10,844 nucleotides of DNA, from the NCBI GenBank assembly GCA_039794845.1, contig JAUQVK010000031.1, forward strand, positions 1 to 10,844, given 5' to 3'. Positions 31-9,748 of this stretch are shown here, one piece after another. The stretch's first letter is position 1. Each line of letters begins with the position of its first letter. Made by a program: the position numbers and the translations under genes. Source of the DNA: Thermostichus sp. DRC_bins_24. GTDB lineage: Bacteria > Cyanobacteriota > Cyanobacteriia > Thermostichales > Thermostichaceae. The notes beneath the pieces were generated by a model that did not search any database, was not told the DNA's origin, and worked only from the letters and a program-made list of their open reading frames with translations.

Positions 31-1332
31 ATGGCCTTGGCGCAGCCGCGATCCCCACAATCTGGGTGGAAAAAGTTCCGGCAAGCGTTTTCTGCCTGGC
101 GCGAGTTCGATGGCATTTTGTTGGCAACGGTGTTGGTCTTAACCGGCATCGGCATCTTGGCCATTCACAGCACCGTCCGGGAACGCCCGATCAGCAACTA
201 CTGGCTGCAGCAGTTGATCATGGCCGGGCTGAGTTTGATCCCGCTGGGGGTGTTGGCCCGGATCCCTTACGAGCGGTTGCTACGCTGGCATTGGTTTACC
301 TACTTCCTGACACTGGCGGGGTTGATCGCCGTCTTGTTTTTCGGTACAGCCGGGGGAGGGGCGGAGCGGTGGATCTCTGTTGCCGGGATCCACATTCAAC
401 CTTCTGAGTTCGCCAAGTTGGGGGTGATCCTCACCCTGGCTGCCATTCTGCACCACTGGCCGATCAGATATTTCAGTCAAATTTGGGTGGCTGTCGCCGT
501 GATTACCCCCCCTTGGGTGCTGATCTTCCTGCAGCCCAACTTGGGCACAGCATTGGTGTTCGTGGTGATTTTGCTAACCATGCTCTACTGGGCTGGAGCA
601 AAGGGCAGCTGGATCATTTTGCTCATGTCCCCTGGAGTGGGGGCGATTCTCTACGGCTTGCACACGCGCCCTGAGCTGAGCTGGATGCTGTGGGTGTGGT
701 TGATCTGGTGCTTGGGCATGGCGGGGCTGGCGGCATGGCGACTTCCTTGGCGCTGGACCGGGGCAATCACGTTTGGGGTGATTAACCTGCTCTCGGGGCA
801 TCTGGGACAAGTGGCTTGGCACTTCCTCAAGCCTTACCAGCGGCGGCGGTTGGAGATCTTCATCGATCCGGCTCAAGAACCCTGGGGATCCGGTTATCAC
901 TTGATTCAATCGCGCATTGCCATCGGGGCTGGCGGCTTTTGGGGACAAGGGCTTCAACAGGGCACCCAAACCCAACTGGACTTTATCCCGGAACAGCACA
1001 CCGATTTCATCTTTTCGGCGATTGGAGAAGAAATGGGCTTTTTCGGCACCCTCACGGTGTTGATTCTGCTTTGGATTTTGTGCGTCCGGCTGATCCTTAT
1101 CGCCCAAGGGGCCAAAGATAATTTTGGATCCCTGATCGCAATTGGGGTGCTGGCAATGATCCTGTTTCAGTCGGTGGTGAATATCGGCATGACGATTGGC
1201 TTAGCTCCGATTACTGGCTTGCCCCTGCCTTTTCTCAGCTACGGCCGCTCTGCCCTACTGACCAATTTTCTGGCGATTGGCCTGGTGGAATCGGTGGTGA
1301 TGCACCGCCAGCGCACCACGTTTTTCACTTGA
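31..1332 (+). CDS. rodA: Rod shape-determining protein RodA (SEDS family peptidoglycan glycosyltransferase)
   Basis: 433-aa polytopic membrane protein with FtsW/RodA/SpoVE motifs: GAERWI, IQPSEFAK, LQPNLGT, GYHLIQSRIAIGAGG, FIPEQHTDFIFS, PITGLPLPFLSYG. PEQHTDFIF and the YQRRRL..F.DP segment favour RodA over FtsW. Confidence 0.9.
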   Translation: MALAQPRSPQSGWKKFRQAFSAWREFDGILLATVLVLTGIGILAIHSTVRERPISNYWLQQLIMAGLSLIPLGVLARIPYERLLRWHWFTYFLTLAGLIAVLFFGTAGGGAERWISVAGIHIQPSEFAKLGVILTLAAILHHWPIRYFSQIWVAVAVITPPWVLIFLQPNLGTALVFVVILLTMLYWAGAKGSWIILLMSPGVGAILYGLHTRPELSWMLWVWLIWCLGMAGLAAWRLPWRWTGAITFGVINLLSGHLGQVAWHFLKPYQRRRLEIFIDPAQEPWGSGYHLIQSRIAIGAGGFWGQGLQQGTQTQLDFIPEQHTDFIFSAIGEEMGFFGTLTVLILLWILCVRLILIAQGAKDNFGSLIAIGVLAMILFQSVVNIGMTIGLAPITGLPLPFLSYGRSALLTNFLAIGLVESVVMHRQRTTFFT

Positions 1333-1413: not shown

Positions 1414-1458
1414 ACCCCTTGCTTGGGTCTGTACTTGGATCCCTTCTCACCCGTGGCT

Positions 1459-3417
1459 ATGTCTCAACCCACCCTCGAATCCATCCTGCACGAGCAACGC
1501 CTGTTCCCGCCCCCCACCGCCTTTGCTCAGCAGGCCCGCATCACCCCCGAACGCTACCAGCAGCTTTGCCAGGAGGCCGAAGCGGATCCTCTAGGGTTTT
1601 GGGAGCGGCTGGCCCAGCAGGAGTTGCACTGGTTCCGACCTTGGCAACAGGTATTGCAATGGGATCCGCCACAGGCGCAGTGGTTTGTGGGGGGACAACT
1701 CAACCTCAGTTACAACTGCCTGGATCGCCACCTGGAGAATGGCCGTCGCCACAAAACCGCCCTGATTTGGGAGGGGGAACCGGGGGAGATTCGCACCTTT
1801 ACCTACGAACAACTGCACCGAGAAGTCTGTCGCCTGGCCAATGGCCTCAAGGCCCTGGGCATTCAAACCGGGGATCGGGTGGGGATTTACCTGCCGATGA
1901 TCCCGGAAGCTGCCATGGCCATGCTGGCCTGTGCCCGCATTGGGGCCGCCCATACGGTGGTGTTTGGGGGATTTAGTGCTGAGGCCCTCAAGGATCGCTT
2001 GCGGGATGCGGAAGCCAAAGCGGTGATCACCGCCGATGGCGGTTGGCGCAAAGAGGCCATCGTCCCCCTTAAGCCGCAGGTGGATCTGGCCCTGGCAGAG
2101 GGGGTGCCCAGCGTCGAGAAAGTCCTGGTGGTGCAGCGCACCGGGCAGACAGTGGAAATGACCCCAGGCCGAGATGTGTGGTGGCATGAGTTGGCCCCTA
2201 CCCTCAGCGAGGATTGCCCCGCCCAACCGATGGACTCGGAGGCAATGCTGTTCATCCTCTACACCTCCGGCACCACGGGCAAACCCAAGGGGGTGGTGCA
2301 CACCACCGGCGGCTACAACCTCTACACCCACCTCACCTGCCAGTGGATCTTCGATCTGCGGGAAGAGGATATTTACTGGTGTACCGCTGATGTTGGTTGG
2401 ATCACAGGGCACAGCTACATCGTCTATGGCCCTCTCTCCAATGGGGCAACGGTGTTCATGTACGAAGGAGCCCCCCGACCGTCCAAGCCTGATTGCTTTT
2501 GGGATCTGATCGCCCGCCACCGAATTTCTATTTTCTACACCGCTCCCACGGCGATTCGGGCCTTTATGAAAAGTGGGGAGGCCCTGCCCCGTCAGCACGA
2601 TCTCTCCTCCTTGCGTCTGTTGGGCACCGTCGGTGAGCCCATCAACCCCGAGGCCTGGATGTGGTACCACCGCGTCATTGGCCATGAACGCTGCCCGATT
2701 GTGGATACCTGGTGGCAAACGGAAACCGGCGGCATCATGATTTCACCCCTACCGGGGGTTACCACCACCAAACCGGGATCCGCCACGCGTCCTTTCCCCG
2801 GCATTCAAGCGGATATTGTTGATTTGGAAGGGGATCCGGCCCCGGAAGGGGGCTATTTGGTGATCCGCCACCCTTGGCCAGGGATGATGCGCACGGTCTA
2901 TAAAGATCCGCAGCGGTTCCGGGCCAGCTATTGGGAGAAGATCCCCCCCAAGGACGGGCAGTACCTTTACTTCGCCGGGGATGGGGCCCACCGGGACGAA
3001 GACGGCTACTTCTGGGTGATGGGTCGGGTGGACGATGTCATCAGTGTGGCGGGTCATCGCCTCGGCACCATGGAGTTGGAATCTGCCTTGGTGTCTCATC
3101 CTGCCGTAGCCGAAGCGGCTGTGGTGGGTCGCCCCGATGAAATCAAGGGGGAAGCGATTGTGGCCTTTGTGATTTTGTCGGAGGGCCGGGAGGGCAGCGA
3201 GCCCCTGCGCCAGGAGCTGATGCAACACGTGGTCACGGAAATTGGGGCGATTGCCCGACCCAGTGAGATCCGCTTCACGGAGGCTTTGCCCAAAACCCGT
3301 TCCGGCAAGATCATGCGGCGCCTGCTCCGGGATTTGGCCGCCGGTTCCGGCATTAGCGGCGATACCTCCACCCTGGAGGATCGGGGGGTGCTGGAACGGT
3401 TGCGCCAAGGAGTGTAA
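1459..3417 (+). CDS. acs: Acetyl-coenzyme A synthetase (acetate--CoA ligase, AMP-forming)
   Basis: Motifs [49 protein letters not shown] and [11 protein letters not shown] (acetylatable Lys). Start placed at ATG 1459 ([13 protein letters not shown]) rather than TTG 1423, matching the usual Acs N-terminus and the promoter position. Confidence 0.96.
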
Positions 3418-4675
3418 TGCAAGACTTTTCGTAGAATGGAGCATTTTTCCTGCCTTCTAACTCTCTGAATGCCCTCCTTGATGAAGCAGATGGGATACAT
3501 CATTGAAGTTGATTTTGGCTTGAATGACTTGTGCTAGAAATAAGCCTATGATTGAATCGAAGCTATTTCGGATCCCAATGCTCGGTCCTGATGATGTCTC
3601 TGGGCTCAAGGCATTGGTTGACCAAGGAGTCATCAATCCCGAAGAAGTTATCGCGATTTTAGGGAAAACAGAGGGGAATGGTTGTGTAAACGACTTTAGT
3701 CGTGGATTTTCCACTCTTGCATTCAGAAGCTACCTCCAAGAGATAACGGGTAAATCTCACAGTGAACTTAGTAAGCAAGTTGCCTTTGTCATGTCTGGAG
3801 GCACTGAAGGTGTCATGTCTCCTCATGCGGTTGTGTTTACTAATCGGGTAAAGAATAATACACTTCAAGATGAGAAATCCTTCGTGGCAGTATCTGGCTT
3901 TACCCGAGAGTTTCTTCCTGAAGAAATTGGTACTAAATCAATGGTATCCGAGGTTGCAAAGTCTGTCATTAAGTTGATGGATAGCGCAGGCATCGACGAT
4001 CCTGAAGATGTTCATTTCGTTCAAGTTAAGTGTCCCCTTTTAACCTCTGAGCGGATTAACGACGCCCACACCCGTGGTAAACAAGTTGTTACCCATGACA
4101 CTTATAAATCAATGGCTTATTCTAGAGCTGCATCAGCTTTGGGAGTAGGTGTAGCAACAAAGGAGCTAAAAGAGGCCGATATTACTGAACAGGATATTGG
4201 TCATAACTGGAGCTTGTACTCATCGGTTGCATCAACCTCTGCAGGGATCGAATTGATGAATTGTGAGCTTATTTTAATGGGAAATTCACGACTGGGATCT
4301 GGAGAGTATTGGATCGGTCATGGGGTTATGCAAGACAGTATAGATCTTCAGGCCGTTTTGAGAACCCTAAAAAATGCAGGGCTGAATTTTGAGGAGTTGC
4401 CCAATCGAAGGGAACTAAATCGAATCGTAAGTGTCTTTGCCAAAGCGGAAATTAGCTCTACAGGGATCGTGCGCAACCGACGTACAACTGCGTTAACAGA
4501 CTCTGATATTAACCATACCCGCCATGCTCGTGCAGTAGTCAATGCTGTGATTGCTTCGGTGGTGGGCGATCCGATGATCTATGTATCAGGAGGTGCGGAA
4601 CACCAGGGCCCGGATGGAGGTGGCCCGATCGCGGTCATCGTTAGCCAATGAAATCTCATTGAAACATTCCTGTAA
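3418..4675. other. Low-GC, probably horizontally acquired single-gene islet
   Basis: Spot counts of 60-nt lines gave 38-50% GC inside versus about 65% in a line of acs. Codons inside often end in A/T. The shift begins at the acs stop codon and ends before the cysteine desulfurase gene. Boundaries are approximate. Confidence 0.75.
3548..4651 (+). CDS. atzD: Cyanuric acid amidohydrolase (AtzD/TrzD, ring-opening amidohydrolase family)
   Basis: 367 aa from ATG 3548 (an alternative ATG is at 3524). All three repeat units carry their Lys/Arg/Ser motifs: [15 protein letters not shown] and [26 protein letters not shown] and STSAG; FAKAE, TRHARA and [15 protein letters not shown]. The Arg in SRAASALG and HARA and the SGG in the last motif are cyanuric-acid-hydrolase-type, not barbiturase-type. 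Confidence 0.92.
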
Positions 4676-4730
4676 CCAGCGAATAGGCGCACTAAGATGG
4701 GGACATTGAATCCTTTGTTTTGGGCTTTTC

Positions 4731-5948
4731 ATGTTGCCTCTGGATCCCGCTCTCTATTTTGACCACAGCGCTACCACCCCCCCTCGGCCCGAGGTGATCG
4801 AGGCGATGCAAAGGGCCATGCAGGAGAGCTGGGGCAATCCCTCCAGTTTGCACGGCTGGGGAGAACGGGCGGCTCTGGCCATGGAACGGGCGCGGCAACA
4901 GGTGGCGGATCTGCTCAATTGTGAGCCGGAGTCGTTGGTGTTCACCTCGGGAGGCACCGAGTCCAATAATCTCGCCCTGTTTGGGGTTGCCCAAGGCTAC
5001 CGGACGCCCCAACATCTGATCATTTCTGCTGTTGAACATTCCTCGGTGGAGAATGCTGCCCGTCAGCTGGAATCTCAGGGGTGGCAGGTGACTCGATTGC
5101 CCGTAGATCCAGCCGGACAGGTGGACCCGCAGGCCTTGGCGCAGGCTTTGCAGCCCAACACCGTCTTGGTCTCGATCCTGCACGGCCAAAACGAAGTGGG
5201 ATCCCTGCAACCGATTGCCGAACTGGGCCGTCTTTGCCGAGAGGCGGGGGTGCTCTTTCACAGCGATGCCGTGCAGACGGTGGGGCGGATCCCGTTGGAT
5301 CTTTCGGAACTGCCCATCGATATGCTCTCCCTTTCGGGCCATAAGCTCTACGGGCCCCAGGGGGTAGGAGCCTTGTATGTGCGTGCGGGGGTGGAGTTGC
5401 GACCTCTGCTGCGGGGGGGCGGGCAAGAACGGCGTCTGCGCTCCGGTACCCAAGGGATCCCTGGGATCGTCGGTTTGGGGGTGGCAGCGGCTTTGGCCGC
5501 CCAGGAATTGCCGCAAGAAACAGCTCGTCTGCGCCGATTGCAGAGCCATTTGGCAAGTTTGCTGGTCAGTGTGCCGGAGTTATTGCCGACGGGGCCGTTG
5601 GATCTGGAGCAGCGGTTGCCCCATCACCTCAGCTACTGCAGCGAAAGGATCCCGGGCAATGTGTGGGTGCAGGGTATGAGCCGCCAGGGTATCGCCATCA
5701 GCGCCGGATCCGCCTGTAGCAGTGGCCAGTTGATCCCCAGTCGCATTCTCTTGGCCATGGGCTATTCAGAAGCAGAGGCGTTGGGGTCGATTCGCCTCAG
5801 CCTTGGCAAGGCCACCACCTTGGCGGCGGTTGAGTCTGTAGCCCGTGGTTTGCGGGCGTTGATCCCTTCGGCTTCGGCATCCGGATGGGATGGTGCAGCT
5901 CAACCCTTGTTGGTCGGCTCCCGTCGTGTCAGCGGGCCAGAAGCATAG
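4731..5948 (+). CDS. iscS: Cysteine desulfurase, group I (IscS/NifS-like, PLP-dependent)
   Basis: YFDHSATTP, GNPSSLH, FTSGGTESNN, HSDAVQ, SLSGHKLYGPQG (PLP Lys), GGGQE..LRSGT and SAGSACSS (catalytic Cys, group I signature). The iscS versus nifS paralogue identity is not resolved. Confidence 0.92.
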   Translation: MLPLDPALYFDHSATTPPRPEVIEAMQRAMQESWGNPSSLHGWGERAALAMERARQQVADLLNCEPESLVFTSGGTESNNLALFGVAQGYRTPQHLIISAVEHSSVENAARQLESQGWQVTRLPVDPAGQVDPQALAQALQPNTVLVSILHGQNEVGSLQPIAELGRLCREAGVLFHSDAVQTVGRIPLDLSELPIDMLSLSGHKLYGPQGVGALYVRAGVELRPLLRGGGQERRLRSGTQGIPGIVGLGVAAALAAQELPQETARLRRLQSHLASLLVSVPELLPTGPLDLEQRLPHHLSYCSERIPGNVWVQGMSRQGIAISAGSACSSGQLIPSRILLAMGYSEAEALGSIRLSLGKATTLAAVESVARGLRALIPSASASGWDGAAQPLLVGSRRVSGPEA

Positions 5949-6002
5949 TGCCTTGTGGGCTGGGTTTGGTTAAGGTATTGGAGAGTTACAGGGCTGGTCG
6001 TC

Positions 6003-6611
6003 ATGGCTGAGATGAGTCCGTATCAGGTGTTGGGAATCAGCGAAGAAGCCTCTTTTGAGGAGATTCAGTCGGCGCGGGAGCAACTCCTAGCCAACTTAAG
6101 CGCCGATGAACAGCAGCAGGAGCGGGTGGAGCAAGCCTACGATGCCATCCTGATGCAGCGCCTACGCCTGCGCAAAGAGGGCAAAATCGCCGTTCCCGAC
6201 CGCATTCGTTACGCCGAACAACGGGCGGCCAACCCTGAGCCGGAGCTGAGTGTGCCCCCACCCGCCAGCAAAACCCCCCGTTGGGTCGACCGTTGGCTGG
6301 ATACGCCTTCTACCACCGATGCCCTTCTGCCCGCGGCCCTGTTGGGGGGGTTAATCGGCTGGGTCGTCTTGGCTCCTGATGAGTATCCTTCGCTGCAACT
6401 GGCGCTGGGGTTGATGGCCTGTATCTATTTTCTGTACCGCAAAGAGCGCCGCTTTGTTCGTTCCTTTCTCTTGGCCTTGGCGGGCCTGAGCCTGGGGCTG
6501 TTGTTGGCCTATGGCATTGCCATTCCCCTCACGGGCGGCGATGCCCCCGGAGCGCTGTTGGTGGGGATCACCTTTGGGGTGATGTGGTTGGTGACCAGTT
6601 TTTTGCGCTAG
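6003..6611 (+). CDS. CPP1-like family protein (chaperone-like protein of POR1; J-like domain plus C-terminal membrane helices)
   Basis: SPYQVLGISEEASFEEIQSAR...VEQAYDAILMQRLRLRKEGKIAVPDRIRYAE is the cyanobacterial/plastid CPP1-like N-terminus (J-like, no HPD), followed by hydrophobic helices. ATG 6003 (or 6012) is preferred over GTG 5955. Confidence 0.85.
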   Translation: MAEMSPYQVLGISEEASFEEIQSAREQLLANLSADEQQQERVEQAYDAILMQRLRLRKEGKIAVPDRIRYAEQRAANPEPELSVPPPASKTPRWVDRWLDTPSTTDALLPAALLGGLIGWVVLAPDEYPSLQLALGLMACIYFLYRKERRFVRSFLLALAGLSLGLLLAYGIAIPLTGGDAPGALLVGITFGVMWLVTSFLR

Positions 6612-7603
6612 CTGTGGGCTTTGATCAGGGCGGCCAATTTGCGCCGCATCAGGATCCCGGGTTTATCCGCCAGCATGTGTTGTTCGGCCTCGAGGTTGAG
6701 GGGTACATCCGGGTGGGTGGTCTCTAAAATATCCCGATCCTCGGCGGCCACGGCCCGATTAAAGCGGAACACCGCATCGGCATCTACCCCAGCCGGGTCA
6801 TCGTTGCGCATGAAAAAGTGGGTAATTTGCGAGGCCGTATCGTCAATGGGGGTGGCAGACATGAAGATCAAGGTAACCAAGCCATTCGGATAGGCAACCC
6901 TGGCCCGATAGGTAAAGGGCAACATCCAGTTTTTCTCGTAAATGCGTAGGGTACGCTCCTCCGGGATCCCGACATTTTGCCGTTGCAGGGGGTTGTTTTT
7001 CACCGGCACGGTGGTGTGGGTGCGGATCCCGTCTTCCAGCTCGATGAGCTCAAAGGAGGCGGGCACCGGATTTTCCGTATCGCCAAAGGTGCCGGTGTGA
7101 ACAATGCTGAAGTGGGCATTGTCGAAGACATTTTCCATCAATCGCAGGCCAGCACAGTCCCAGCGCTCGTTGTAGGTATGCACCCGCCAAAACTGCGGAT
7201 CCTCCACCTCCGGCACCGCCGGAATATCCGCCAAAGGCCGATCCGACAAACACACCCAGACGTAGCCGTAGCGCTCTTGGGCCAAAAAGGCCGGCACCTT
7301 GTAGCTGGCCGGGATCCGTTCCTCGGGTCGGAGTTGCGGCACCTTTACACAGGATCCCTGACGGTTAAATTCCCAGCCGTGATAAGGACACTGAATTTGC
7401 CCCTGGCAGACCTTGCCCTGAGAGAGGCGAGCGGTGCGATGGCAGCAGCGATCCAACATAGCCGCCGGCCGCCCCGCTGCATCCAACCACAACACCAACT
7501 TCTCCCCCAAAAGCTGAAAGGGTTGTGGCCTTTGCCGAAGTGCTTCCAGGGGTAAGGTGGAATACCAAAAGCGGCGCAAGACCGGTTCCTGGGTTACCCG
7601 CAT
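6608..7603 (-). CDS. Rieske non-heme iron oxygenase alpha subunit (VanA/NdmA-like architecture), substrate unknown
   Basis: Rieske motif C-x-H-x16-C-x2-H (DRCCHR...QCPYHGW), mononuclear Fe motif ENVFDNAHFSIVH, and a distal Asp in AAEDRDILE; 331 aa. Confidence 0.9.
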   Translation of the reverse strand: MRVTQEPVLRRFWYSTLPLEALRQRPQPFQLLGEKLVLWLDAAGRPAAMLDRCCHRTARLSQGKVCQGQIQCPYHGWEFNRQGSCVKVPQLRPEERIPASYKVPAFLAQERYGYVWVCLSDRPLADIPAVPEVEDPQFWRVHTYNERWDCAGLRLMENVFDNAHFSIVHTGTFGDTENPVPASFELIELEDGIRTHTTVPVKNNPLQRQNVGIPEERTLRIYEKNWMLPFTYRARVAYPNGLVTLIFMSATPIDDTASQITHFFMRNDDPAGVDADAVFRFNRAVAAEDRDILETTHPDVPLNLEAEQHMLADKPGILMRRKLAALIKAHS

Positions 7604-7631: not shown

Positions 7632-7673
7632 AACGTATCAGCTCAGCAGAACCAGTCCGGTAGTGGGCACTAC
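7632..7673 (-). promoter_or_regulatory. NtcA-activated (class II) promoter of the Rieske oxygenase gene
   Basis: GTAGTGGGCACTAC (7660-7673) is GTA-N8-TAC. On the minus strand exactly 22 nt (7659-7638) separate it from TACGTT (7637-7632), a TAN3T -10 box, which is preceded by TGn. The -10 box ends 28 nt before the ATG at 7603. Confidence 0.75.
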
Positions 7674-7810
7674 GATATCAGGTATGCTTTGCAAGAAAAA
7701 ACAGACTTACATTCGTTGTACCCTCTGGGCCAGGAAAATTGACAACAGGTTGTCCCGCATGCACAAGGGATCCAGCCTACACTAGCGGTGGTGGTATCTG
7801 TTTGGGGATC

Positions 7811-9748
7811 ATGCTGGAAGGCAGGTCTAGGGGTGGGTTATCCCGGTTCGCAGCAGCGGGTCGCAGGTCAGTGCCGAGAAACATCCCCCTAGAGGCGGAC
7901 CAGAAGGGCCAGCGTCCCACCCAGCAGCGCCGACGCAGAGGCTCATGGCTTGCTTCTCAAGGGATCCATGGGCAATGGGGGGCAGGCTTGAGGTGGATTT
8001 TGGGAAAGCGGATCCCGACGAGCCGGCAACTGGACTTCCGCACCTGGATGACCGGATTGGTTCTGGTGATCGCCCTGTTTCTGACGGGGGTACGCCTGGT
8101 TTACCTGCAGCACCAACAGGCACCCATGTTGCAGGCACGGGCCCAAGCCCAACAACGCGCCCAGTTACGACCCTTCATTCCCCGCCGTTCTATTTTGGAT
8201 CGTCACTCCATCGCCAAGCAGCAGGCGGAACTGTTGGCGGTTGATCGCCCGGTTTATACGCTTTGGGCCCATCCCCGCCTGTTTGGCAGACGCACCCCAC
8301 AGGAGATTGCCGCGGCCTTGGCTCCGCTGTTGCGTCGTCCGGTGGAGCAACTGACGGAACAGCTATCGGCCCATCATCGTGCTGTGCGGGTGGAGCGCTG
8401 GGTATCGCAGGAGGTGGCGGATCAAATTCAGGCTTTGTACCTGGATGGGTTGGAATTGGTGAGCGAGCGGCAACGCATTTACCCACAAAAAGAGATGGCC
8501 GCCGAAGTGGTGGGCTATGTGGATCTGGATCATCAAGGGCAAGCCGGGTTGGAATATTCCCAACAGGGATTAATGGAGCGAACCGTTCAGCCTGTTACGA
8601 TTCCCCGCGATGGCTATGGACAGCTGTTGGCCGCGGAAGTGCCGGAAGGCTTGCTGCAATCTCGAGAGACAGTGTTGCAACTGACCCTGGATATGCGCTT
8701 GCAACGGGCCGCCCGCGCTGCTCTGAAAACCCAACTGCAACGATTTCAAGCGCTGCGGGGCACAGTGATTATTCTGCAGCCGCAAACGGGAGAAATTTTG
8801 GCTTTGGTAAGTGAGCCCACCTACGACCCCAACCGCTATTTCGAGTTTGATCCGGGCCTGTTTCGCAACTGGGCGGTGACGGATTTGTACGAGCCGGGAT
8901 CCACCTTCAAACCAATCAACATCGCCATTGGTCTGGATGCTGGGGCCTTCAGAGCAGATGAACGGGTATACGACGAAGGCCGGATCATGATCGGTCAGTG
9001 GCCGGTGCAAAACTACGATTACAACCAGCGGGGTGCCCATGGCTGGATGAGCGTCACCGATATCCTCAGGCAATCTAGCAATGTGGGGATGGTGCATCTG
9101 ATGCGCAAGCTGGATCCCCGCCAGTACTACAACGCCTTGGTCCGGCTGGGGCTCAACGAGCGCAGTGGGGTGGATTTACCCTTTGAGCCCGCCAGCCGCC
9201 TGAAACCGCTGCGTCAATTTGTCACGGTGCCTGTGGAACGGGCCACCGCTGCTTTTGGCCAAGGCTTTGCCCTCACTCCCCTACAGCTGGCCAGCTTGCA
9301 TTGCATCATCGCCAATGGCGGGTTGAAAGTGCAGCCCCATGTGGTGCGGGGCTTGGTAGAAAAAGACACCGATACGCTGGTGTGGGGATCCGCCCAACCG
9401 CGGCCGATACGGGTTCTCTCAGAACAAGCCACCTTGAGCGTGCGCACCCAGATGCGGGATGTGGTGGACTTTGGTACGGGTCAGTCCGCCAAAATTGAAG
9501 GCTACGAAATTGGGGGTAAAACTGGCACTGCCCAGAAGGCAGGCCCACGTGGAGGGTATTTACCCGGCAAACGGATCACCAGCTTTGTGGGATATTTCCC
9601 CGCCATTCGCCCCAACTATGTAATTTTGGCAGTGCTCGACGAACCGCGTGGGGAAGATGCCTTCGGCTCCACCACCGCTGCCCCCATCGTCCGCTCCGTG
9701 ATTCAAGAGATCATTACCCTGGAAGGGATTCGCCCGAATGCGACTTGA
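7811..9748 (+). CDS. ftsI: Class B penicillin-binding protein, FtsI/PBP3-like transpeptidase
   Basis: One TM helix (WMTGLVLVIALFLTG), a dimerisation domain (RRSILDR, RIYPQ, GQAGLE, LTLD) and transpeptidase motifs EPGSTFKP (SxxK), SSNVG (SxN) and GKTGTAQ (KTG). The start is uncertain; ATG 7811 is chosen over TTG 7739 because a TACACT -10-like box lies at 7778-7783. Confidence 0.88.
   Translation: MLEGRSRGGLSRFAAAGRRSVPRNIPLEADQKGQRPTQQRRRRGSWLASQGIHGQWGAGLRWILGKRIPTSRQLDFRTWMTGLVLVIALFLTGVRLVYLQHQQAPMLQARAQAQQRAQLRPFIPRRSILDRHSIAKQQAELLAVDRPVYTLWAHPRLFGRRTPQEIAAALAPLLRRPVEQLTEQLSAHHRAVRVERWVSQEVADQIQALYLDGLELVSERQRIYPQKEMAAEVVGYVDLDHQGQAGLEYSQQGLMERTVQPVTIPRDGYGQLLAAEVPEGLLQSRETVLQLTLDMRLQRAARAALKTQLQRFQALRGTVIILQPQTGEILALVSEPTYDPNRYFEFDPGLFRNWAVTDLYEPGSTFKPINIAIGLDAGAFRADERVYDEGRIMIGQWPVQNYDYNQRGAHGWMSVTDILRQSSNVGMVHLMRKLDPRQYYNALVRLGLNERSGVDLPFEPASRLKPLRQFVTVPVERATAAFGQGFALTPLQLASLHCIIANGGLKVQPHVVRGLVEKDTDTLVWGSAQPRPIRVLSEQATLSVRTQMRDVVDFGTGQSAKIEGYEIGGKTGTAQKAGPRGGYLPGKRITSFVGYFPAIRPNYVILAVLDEPRGEDAFGSTTAAPIVRSVIQEIITLEGIRPNAT

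Follow-up and report, generated by a model that had tools for sequence, protein, structure and literature searches.

The window, that is, the whole stretch of 10,844 nucleotides of DNA that was analysed, comes from a Thermostichus genome (G000; 3.50 Mb, 99.9% complete, assembled in 115 contigs) and carries eight clear genes, which are listed in Table 1 together with relevant genes from other contigs of the same genome. The gene under study, atzD, encodes a predicted cyanuric acid amidohydrolase (CAH) and is the sole AtzD-family match in the genome. It stands alone between the acs gene and a cysteine desulfurase gene, the gene order that a first, sequence-only reading of this DNA had described. 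The same reading had guessed at a hot-spring cyanobacterium, which agrees with the source: Thermostichus is a hot-spring genus, and the sequencing runs containing the window DNA carry the label 'hot springs metagenome'.

Table 1. Features of the window and candidate pathway genes on other contigs of genome G000.
Feature	Position or contig	Strand	Remarks
rodA	31-1332	+	
acs (acetate--CoA ligase), left neighbour	1423-3417	+	native GC; NF001208, 1044 bits
Spacer, acs stop to atzD start	3418..3547	+	130 bp; within inserted low-GC segment; conserved with G010
atzD, predicted cyanuric acid amidohydrolase, Bacillota/Moorella type	3548..4651	+	367 aa; alternative upstream ATG at 3524
Spacer, atzD to cysteine desulfurase gene	4652..4730	+	79 bp
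NifS/IscS-like class-V aminotransferase/cysteine desulfurase, right neighbour	4731-5948	+	native GC
CPP1-like protein	5955-6611	+	
Rieske/VanA_C oxygenase	6608-7603	-	
PBP2-type transpeptidase	7739-9748	+	
polA start	10301 onward	+	
BiuH	C11		adjoins 514-aa double ABC ATPase; NF050097, 420.7 bits (cut-off 370)
Second cysteine hydrolase	C103		66% identical to second Rhizobium one; BiuH model 260 bits, below cut-off
BMP/PnrA-type binding protein, two permeases, formamidase	C101		56-77% identity to Rhizobium genes
Free-standing AH_C (allophanate-hydrolase C-terminal domain)	C101; weaker second copy on C115		PF21986, 137.6 bits (C101)
AtzG-like protein overlapping AtzE start	C67		PF13318, 76.9 bits; AtzE NF006631, 754 bits (cut-off 461)
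AtzH/HpxZ	C25		PF11533, 179 bits; NF033625, 147 bits (cut-off 135)
Urease alpha	C102		969 bits (cut-off 680)

The longer of the two possible atzD frames spans 3524-4651 (+) and encodes 375 aa. The ATG at 3548 is preferred as the probable start, because the catalytic residue numbers then equal those of the Moorella enzyme exactly, because AtzD homologs measure 366-368 aa, and because the ortholog in genome G010 keeps the 3548 ATG and has no ATG at 3524. A further reason is provided by a variant contig from a second sequencing run (X2, record 10), in which a 22-nt insertion behind 3541 would frameshift the longer frame only. This strain variant, which duplicates the atzD start region, is weak evidence, being a single contig with a depth of about 4.7. 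Residue numbers of the window protein are given below in the 375-aa frame.

The window protein scores 509 bits against Pfam PF09663, 506.7 bits against TIGR02714, and 521.6 bits, at a cut-off of 360, against the NCBIfam equivalog NF052395, 'cyanuric acid amidohydrolase'. According to the available text on the Moorella thermoacetica enzyme (Shi et al. 2019, PMC6557486), this family member contains three Ser-Lys dyads with a partner Arg, one per domain (S83/K40/R52, S231/K161/R193, and S347/K299/R328), and a loop at residues 347-359. An alignment of 43 rows shows that the window protein has kept every one of the ten residues that correspond to Moorella K40, R52, S83, K161, R193, S231, K299, R325, R328, and S347; the tabulated columns read K, R, S, K, R, S, K, R, R, S (K48, R60, S91, K169, R201, S239, K307, R333, R336, and S355). 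The intact reading frame, the three Ser/Lys/Arg sets, and the C-terminal metal-binding loop, all of which the sequence-only reading had noticed, are thus present at equivalent alignment columns.

In the part of Guo et al. 2021 (PMC9118981) that was available, CAHs are diagnosed by two Arg residues aligned with R194 and R324 of the ADP enzyme and by the motif S-G-G-X-E-X-Q-G-P-X-G-G-G-P. The window protein has R at both of these columns, which separate CAHs from barbiturases and correspond to Moorella R193 and R328, and the motif is matched at residues 355-368. The same residue set and motif occur in the pADPe AtzD, the Rhizobium AtzD, and a Klebsiella plasmid enzyme. The pADPe row likewise has R at both separating columns, whereas the Nonomuraea row and the rows of a divergent 'type b' paralog do not. 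Among solved structures, the top three matches carry the name cyanuric acid amidohydrolase (6bum, 460 bits; 5t13, 452; 6dhj, 443), followed by AtzD 4bvq (364 bits), 4nq3 (303), the barbiturase 5hwe (301), and 5hy0 (243). The distinction between CAH and barbiturase rests on the curated model, the ranking of PDB entries, and the diagnostic residues, since the tree discussed below has no labelled barbiturase. On these grounds, the assignment of the window gene as a predicted cyanuric-acid-type member of the AtzD/barbiturase family is supported, in line with the residue type originally proposed. The likeness to the Moorella enzyme, which the first reading had noted for the N-terminus, also held, with 6bum as the best solved match.

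The composition of atzD differs from that of its host. Its GC content is 0.455 and its GC3 is 0.400, about 4.2 SD off the genome ORFs (mean GC 0.582, sd 0.030; mean GC3 0.665, sd 0.063). Only 5 of the 1184 reference ORFs lie below it in GC and 4 in GC3, the reference being the mechanically defined set of G000 ORFs of at least 350 aa, in which some non-genes are included. Along the window, GC runs at about 0.60-0.64 in acs, drops to 0.42-0.46 over atzD, and is back at 0.61 in the cysteine desulfurase gene. Outside the genus, the closest proteins comprise one at 72% identity, which clusters with the AtzD of genome G015, and then a long list at 59-68%, with named homologs from Erysipelothrix, Tissierella, Tepidimicrobium, Halanaerobium, Alkaliphilus, Proteiniclasticum, and similar organisms.

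The relationships were analysed with a maximum likelihood tree (IQ-TREE, 43 rows, the Moorella sequence not among them). The window protein is paired with the G010 protein (support 100/100), and this pair is sister to G015 plus a database protein, P0002 (90/78). All four are nested in a 20-row clade (100/99) whose named members are Bacillota or Mycoplasmatota-labelled MAGs, and this group of four stands next to P0003, labelled Erysipelothrix sp. (100/98). A separate clade (100/100) is formed by seven 'type a' cyanobacterial AtzDs of native GC, whose genes lie within 0.07 of the GC of their fetched loci; the window gene departs from the long-ORF mean of its genome by about 0.13. The low-GC islet and the nesting in a Bacillota clade therefore indicate, on compositional and phylogenetic grounds, that atzD is a single-gene islet acquired horizontally from a Bacillota-like donor, an origin that the first reading had missed. 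Neither direct or inverted repeats, nor tRNA-like marks, nor mobile-element genes were found flanking the insert.

The history of the insertion site within the genus was followed by tblastn of the window proteins on fetched junctions of other genomes, together with alignments. Genome G010 has the order acs-atzD-nifS-cpp1-Rieske, with an AtzD 90% identical to that of the window. In G004, acs and nifS enclose a 38-residue AtzD fragment (residues 77-114, 58% identity) and 3'-flank sequence resembling that of G010. In G008, acs and nifS lie 98 bp apart, with no trace of atzD at this junction, and in G001 and G006 rodA adjoins nifS, both acs and atzD being absent. A profile search of seven further Thermostichus genomes yielded no AtzD-family match. 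The gene is dispensable, because only a relic is left in G004, the site lacks it in G008, G001, and G006, and the seven other genomes have no match. The G015 copy is on a contig of only 2.8 kb without any other window gene. Run X2, from the same study, provides one contig covering 2994-3597 (record 10) and another covering 4564-5194 (record 14), each with a few differences. These contigs bridge both atzD junctions, and a related strain therefore has both. Run X1 contains the whole stretch without differences; it may be the source of the window and was consequently not counted as independent.

No canonical NtcA site was found in the upstream spacer, and a promoter and terminator scan of the same 130 bp gave no convincing sigma-70 promoter or terminator, with no signal above shuffles. 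The downstream spacer turns after about 9 nt into a native nifS-upstream element, GCRCACTAAGATGRG, common to genomes with and without atzD. This element, directly upstream of nifS, ends all four aligned spacers. The G010 atzD-nifS spacer is about 150 nt longer than that of G000. None of the runs listed as containing the stretch is recorded as RNA. In one RNA run that was compared (X4), the only match was to a conserved acs segment of 35-40 nt from other organisms, which is uninformative on atzD expression either way.

The first reading had called atzD an orphan. This description stood with respect to position, since no pathway gene adjoins it, but not genome-wide: as had been offered as one possibility, the downstream enzymes lie elsewhere, with BiuH, AtzG and AtzE, AtzH/HpxZ, a transporter, and urease dispersed over other contigs (Table 1). 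The BiuH protein is 77% identical to the cysteine hydrolase whose gene immediately precedes atzD in the plasmid cluster of Rhizobium leguminosarum, and the C101 formamidase scores 582 bits against NF009803 (cut-off 406). AtzG, AtzE, and AtzH exceed their cut-offs, yet they are encoded apart from atzD and also occur in relatives without AtzD. A full-length allophanate hydrolase, AtzF, was not found in G000, where the best TIGR02713 match stays at 216 bits (cut-off 511) and GatA and AtzE account for the two amidase-signature matches. A search of the genome for urea carboxylase was also negative. It had been claimed that nitrogen release needs BiuH or AtzEG plus AtzF; BiuH and AtzEG are indeed present, and AtzF would in principle be dispensable. 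With BiuH and urease in the genome, both decay products would be usable, and nitrogen could be released even if AtzF is missing (available text of PMC6219798).

Several observations concern the pathway loci themselves. The BMP-transporter/formamidase operon on C101 is split by low-GC inserts (0.45-0.46; L089:5145-5786 and L089:6828-7631), which hold a DUF433 and DUF5615 pair and a 213-aa ORF without a family match. An Amidohydro_1 'chlorohydrolase-like' gene (L089:10189-11424), with 234 bits against NF005552, below the cut-off of 294, separates the BMP binding protein from the free AH_C on the same contig; its product might act on an aminotriazine or purine-like ring. In three other Thermostichus genomes (G007, G009, and G011) the AtzE-family matches contain internal stop codons, which may reflect decay of the AtzE gene in some members of the genus.

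The distribution of these genes was surveyed in 41 related genomes including G000; these are kin rather than independent samples, and the counts are descriptive only. AtzD-family proteins exceed the Pfam cut-off in 13 genomes, BiuH its own in 22, and AtzE in 24. BiuH is present in all 13 AtzD-family carriers and in 9 of the 28 non-carriers, AtzE in 11 of the 13 carriers and in 13 of the 28 others. BiuH and AtzE are thus more widely spread than AtzD and therefore have a role independent of it. Two of the 13 carriers, G008 and G017, appear to have only the 'type b' paralog, G017 being assigned solely from its score. When the phylum was sampled evenly (301 genomes including G000), 4 genomes passed the cut-off of the CAH equivalog. 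The enzyme is therefore rare across the phylum, whereas it is common in the family of the window organism.

The 'type b' paralog itself was located at L049:4245-5519 (G008:C89) and L076:3997-5169 (G031:C17) and sits on a long branch. Both proteins read QRIKKSNGKS instead of KRSKRSKRRS at the ten columns, so that most CAH residues are missing, and have no C-terminal motif. The G031 copy is flanked by genes for a GntR/FCD regulator and an HbpS-like protein.

Among known systems, the closest is the Moorella thermoacetica CAH (PDB 6bum series; PMC6557486). Like the window protein, it measures 367 aa, and the match spans residues 12-373 of the 375-aa frame. Its Ser/Lys/Arg positions are all identical, as are the 13 residues of the Ca2+ loop, and it would belong to the same Bacillota-type clade. 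The window protein has about five residues (near 290-295) where the crystallised Moorella chain shows a gap, and the hosts differ, an anaerobic acetogen in one case and an oxygenic phototroph in the other. The 'type a' AtzDs (G013, G018, G019, G020, G025, G031, and G032) have the full CAH residues and motif and occur, like that of the window, in genomes with BiuH, but they are about 48-51% identical to the window protein and form a different clade. In G031, the 'type a' atzD is directly downstream of a BiuH-like gene.

Two characterised gene clusters resemble the dispersed set in G000. The Rhizobium leguminosarum cluster (NC_012854; available text of PMC5806882) comprises a BMP transporter, a formamidase, a cysteine hydrolase, atzD, an ABC ATPase, and another cysteine hydrolase, and G000 has homologs of all its genes save the cupin, at 56-77% identity. 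However, atzD is part of the Rhizobium cluster, whereas the cyanobacterial atzD lies outside, and the cluster in G000 is split over C101, C11, and C103; the Rhizobium AtzD, 46% identical to that of the window, belongs to a different clade. A genome of the same family, G013, keeps one intact operon (C40, L078:1463-9141) with a BMP binding protein, two permeases, a CN-hydrolase (formamidase), BiuH, an ABC ATPase, a BiuH-like protein, and a free AH_C, which is collinear with the Rhizobium cyanuric acid/biuret cluster, minus atzD. The second system is atzDGEHF of Pseudomonas sp. ADP (pADPe, NZ_CP062123; Esquirol et al. 2018, PMC6219798, in the part available). The G000 homologs are AtzD at 50% identity, AtzE at 55%, and an AtzH-like protein at 46%, with an AtzG-like protein also present; these counterparts are dispersed (atzD on C31, atzGE on C67, atzH on C25), whereas the ADP genes form an operon. 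Biuret and urea are described as dead ends in strain ADP. Unlike that strain, G000 has BiuH and urease, so that neither compound would be a dead end.

Taken together, it is considered probable, at roughly 80%, that atzD encodes a functional Moorella/Bacillota-type CAH which was acquired as a single gene and feeds a nitrogen-releasing network already present in the host. The acquisition would have taken place in an ancestor of some Thermostichus lineages, with the gene inserted between acs and the cysteine desulfurase gene. In the family mechanism, as far as it is covered by the available text of PMC6557486 and PMC6219798, the Ser-Lys dyad of domain 2 acts as the attacking group on a ring carbonyl, and hydrolysis of the resulting acyl-enzyme gives 1-carboxybiuret. 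In the window protein, this dyad would be S239/K169, opening the s-triazine ring of cyanuric acid, while the remaining two Ser-Lys-Arg sets would orient the substrate and the Ca2+ loop would stabilise the substrate-binding strand. Uptake would probably proceed through the Rhizobium-type BMP-family ABC transporter, for which cyanurate, biuret, or another compound would be the candidate substrate.

From 1-carboxybiuret, flux may be expected through two branches. In the first, 1-carboxybiuret would lose CO2 spontaneously, giving biuret, which BiuH would convert into allophanate and NH3. In the second, AtzEG would deaminate 1-carboxybiuret to 1,3-dicarboxyurea, from which AtzH/HpxZ would yield allophanate. 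The available text of PMC6219798 describes the decarboxylation to biuret, the AtzEG reaction, and the decay of 1,3-dicarboxyurea and allophanate to urea, and proposes the step assigned to AtzH. In the host, allophanate (or 1,3-dicarboxyurea) would decay to urea, to be split by urease, and the last steps, with neither AtzF nor urea carboxylase, would rest on spontaneous decarboxylation and urease. These spontaneous steps should run faster at hot-spring temperatures. A nitrogen-scavenging role of atzD is likely.

It is also conceivable, though improbable, that atzD is a near-neutral passenger, an intact foreign gene that contributes nothing to host physiology and is heading for loss. The relic in G004 and the empty sites in G008, G001, and G006 would be expected in such a case, as would a codon composition still far from that of the host and an upstream region without a recognisable promoter or NtcA site. 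However, the comparison of G000 with G010 gives a dN of 0.048, a dS of 0.416, and a dN/dS of 0.115 for atzD, so that the gene evolves under purifying selection. The catalytic residues are all kept in G000, G010, and G015, and the constant company of BiuH in the sampled relatives also speaks against a passenger. The dS of the flanks is higher, at 0.93 for acs (partial), 1.09 for nifS, and 0.67 for cpp1, and the low atzD value could reflect spread between lineages after their split. A single genus displays the gain of the gene, its maintenance by purifying selection, and its loss with a relic left behind.

Slightly less credit still is given to the idea that the physiological substrate is another cyclic ureide, either barbiturate or an unknown natural ring, instead of cyanuric acid. 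The family does include barbiturases and members of unknown substrate (available text of PMC9118981), related cyanobacteria carry the divergent 'type b' paralog, and it is not evident where cyanuric acid would come from in a hot spring. Against this stand the two Arg residues that set CAHs apart from barbiturases, the CAH-specific C-terminal motif, a margin of 160 bits above the equivalog cut-off, and the identity of the nearest solved relatives, all of them entered under the name cyanuric acid amidohydrolase. An assembly or binning artefact, in which a Bacillota fragment was joined to a cyanobacterial contig, might be suspected from the 115-contig assembly and the sharp GC drop at the atzD borders, but such a chimera was rejected as extremely improbable, given that second-run contigs bridge both junctions, that the acs-atzD-nifS order is repeated in G010, and that a relic occupies the same site in G004, a 4-contig genome.

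With the functional, horizontally acquired CAH as the favoured reading, the locus extends the hosts of a well-studied enzyme to a phototroph of a thermal habitat and illustrates cleanly how a pathway can be assembled by the transfer of one gene; it also shows that a lone atzD is no evidence of a missing pathway. Knowledge of the enzyme family itself is unchanged, and the gene is of a well-understood kind. A relevant paper that turned up for Synechococcus deals with an engineered melamine pathway. In the literature searched, no report of a native cyanobacterial CAH was found, although the surveys of Aukema et al. 2020 (PMC6952224) and Seffernick et al. 2012 (PMC3415516) may already cover it. 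Thermostable CAHs have already been sought for pool-water treatment (PMC9118981), and the window protein is a reasonable candidate for such an enzyme.

Natural cyanuric acid has been described in Paramecium secretions (PMC12342508, in the part available) and as a guanine-oxidation product (a title cited in PMC12623156). A speculative extension, to which only a small chance is given, is that cyanuric acid, biuret, and perhaps triuret serve as natural nitrogen currencies in phototrophic hot-spring mats, where a Bacillota ring-opening enzyme would have been combined with an older biuret- and urea-releasing gene set in a patchwork pathway. These compounds might stem from guanine or urate oxidation under high light and oxygen, from hot cyanate/urea chemistry, or from eukaryote secretions. 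If true, an oxygenic phototroph would be a primary consumer of s-triazine nitrogen with no link to herbicides.

Two minor observations concern other parts of the window. The cysteine desulfurase shares 80-85% amino acid identity with its orthologs (dN 0.126 to G010), whereas acs and cpp1 are far less diverged, with 86-97% identity and a dN of 0.03-0.04 to G010. The NtcA-type pattern GTAN8TAC occurs four times in the window against 0.35 expected; two of these occurrences lie inside the AT-rich atzD coding sequence, and a canonical one is found at 7660-7673, in the spacer between the Rieske oxygenase and PBP2 genes.
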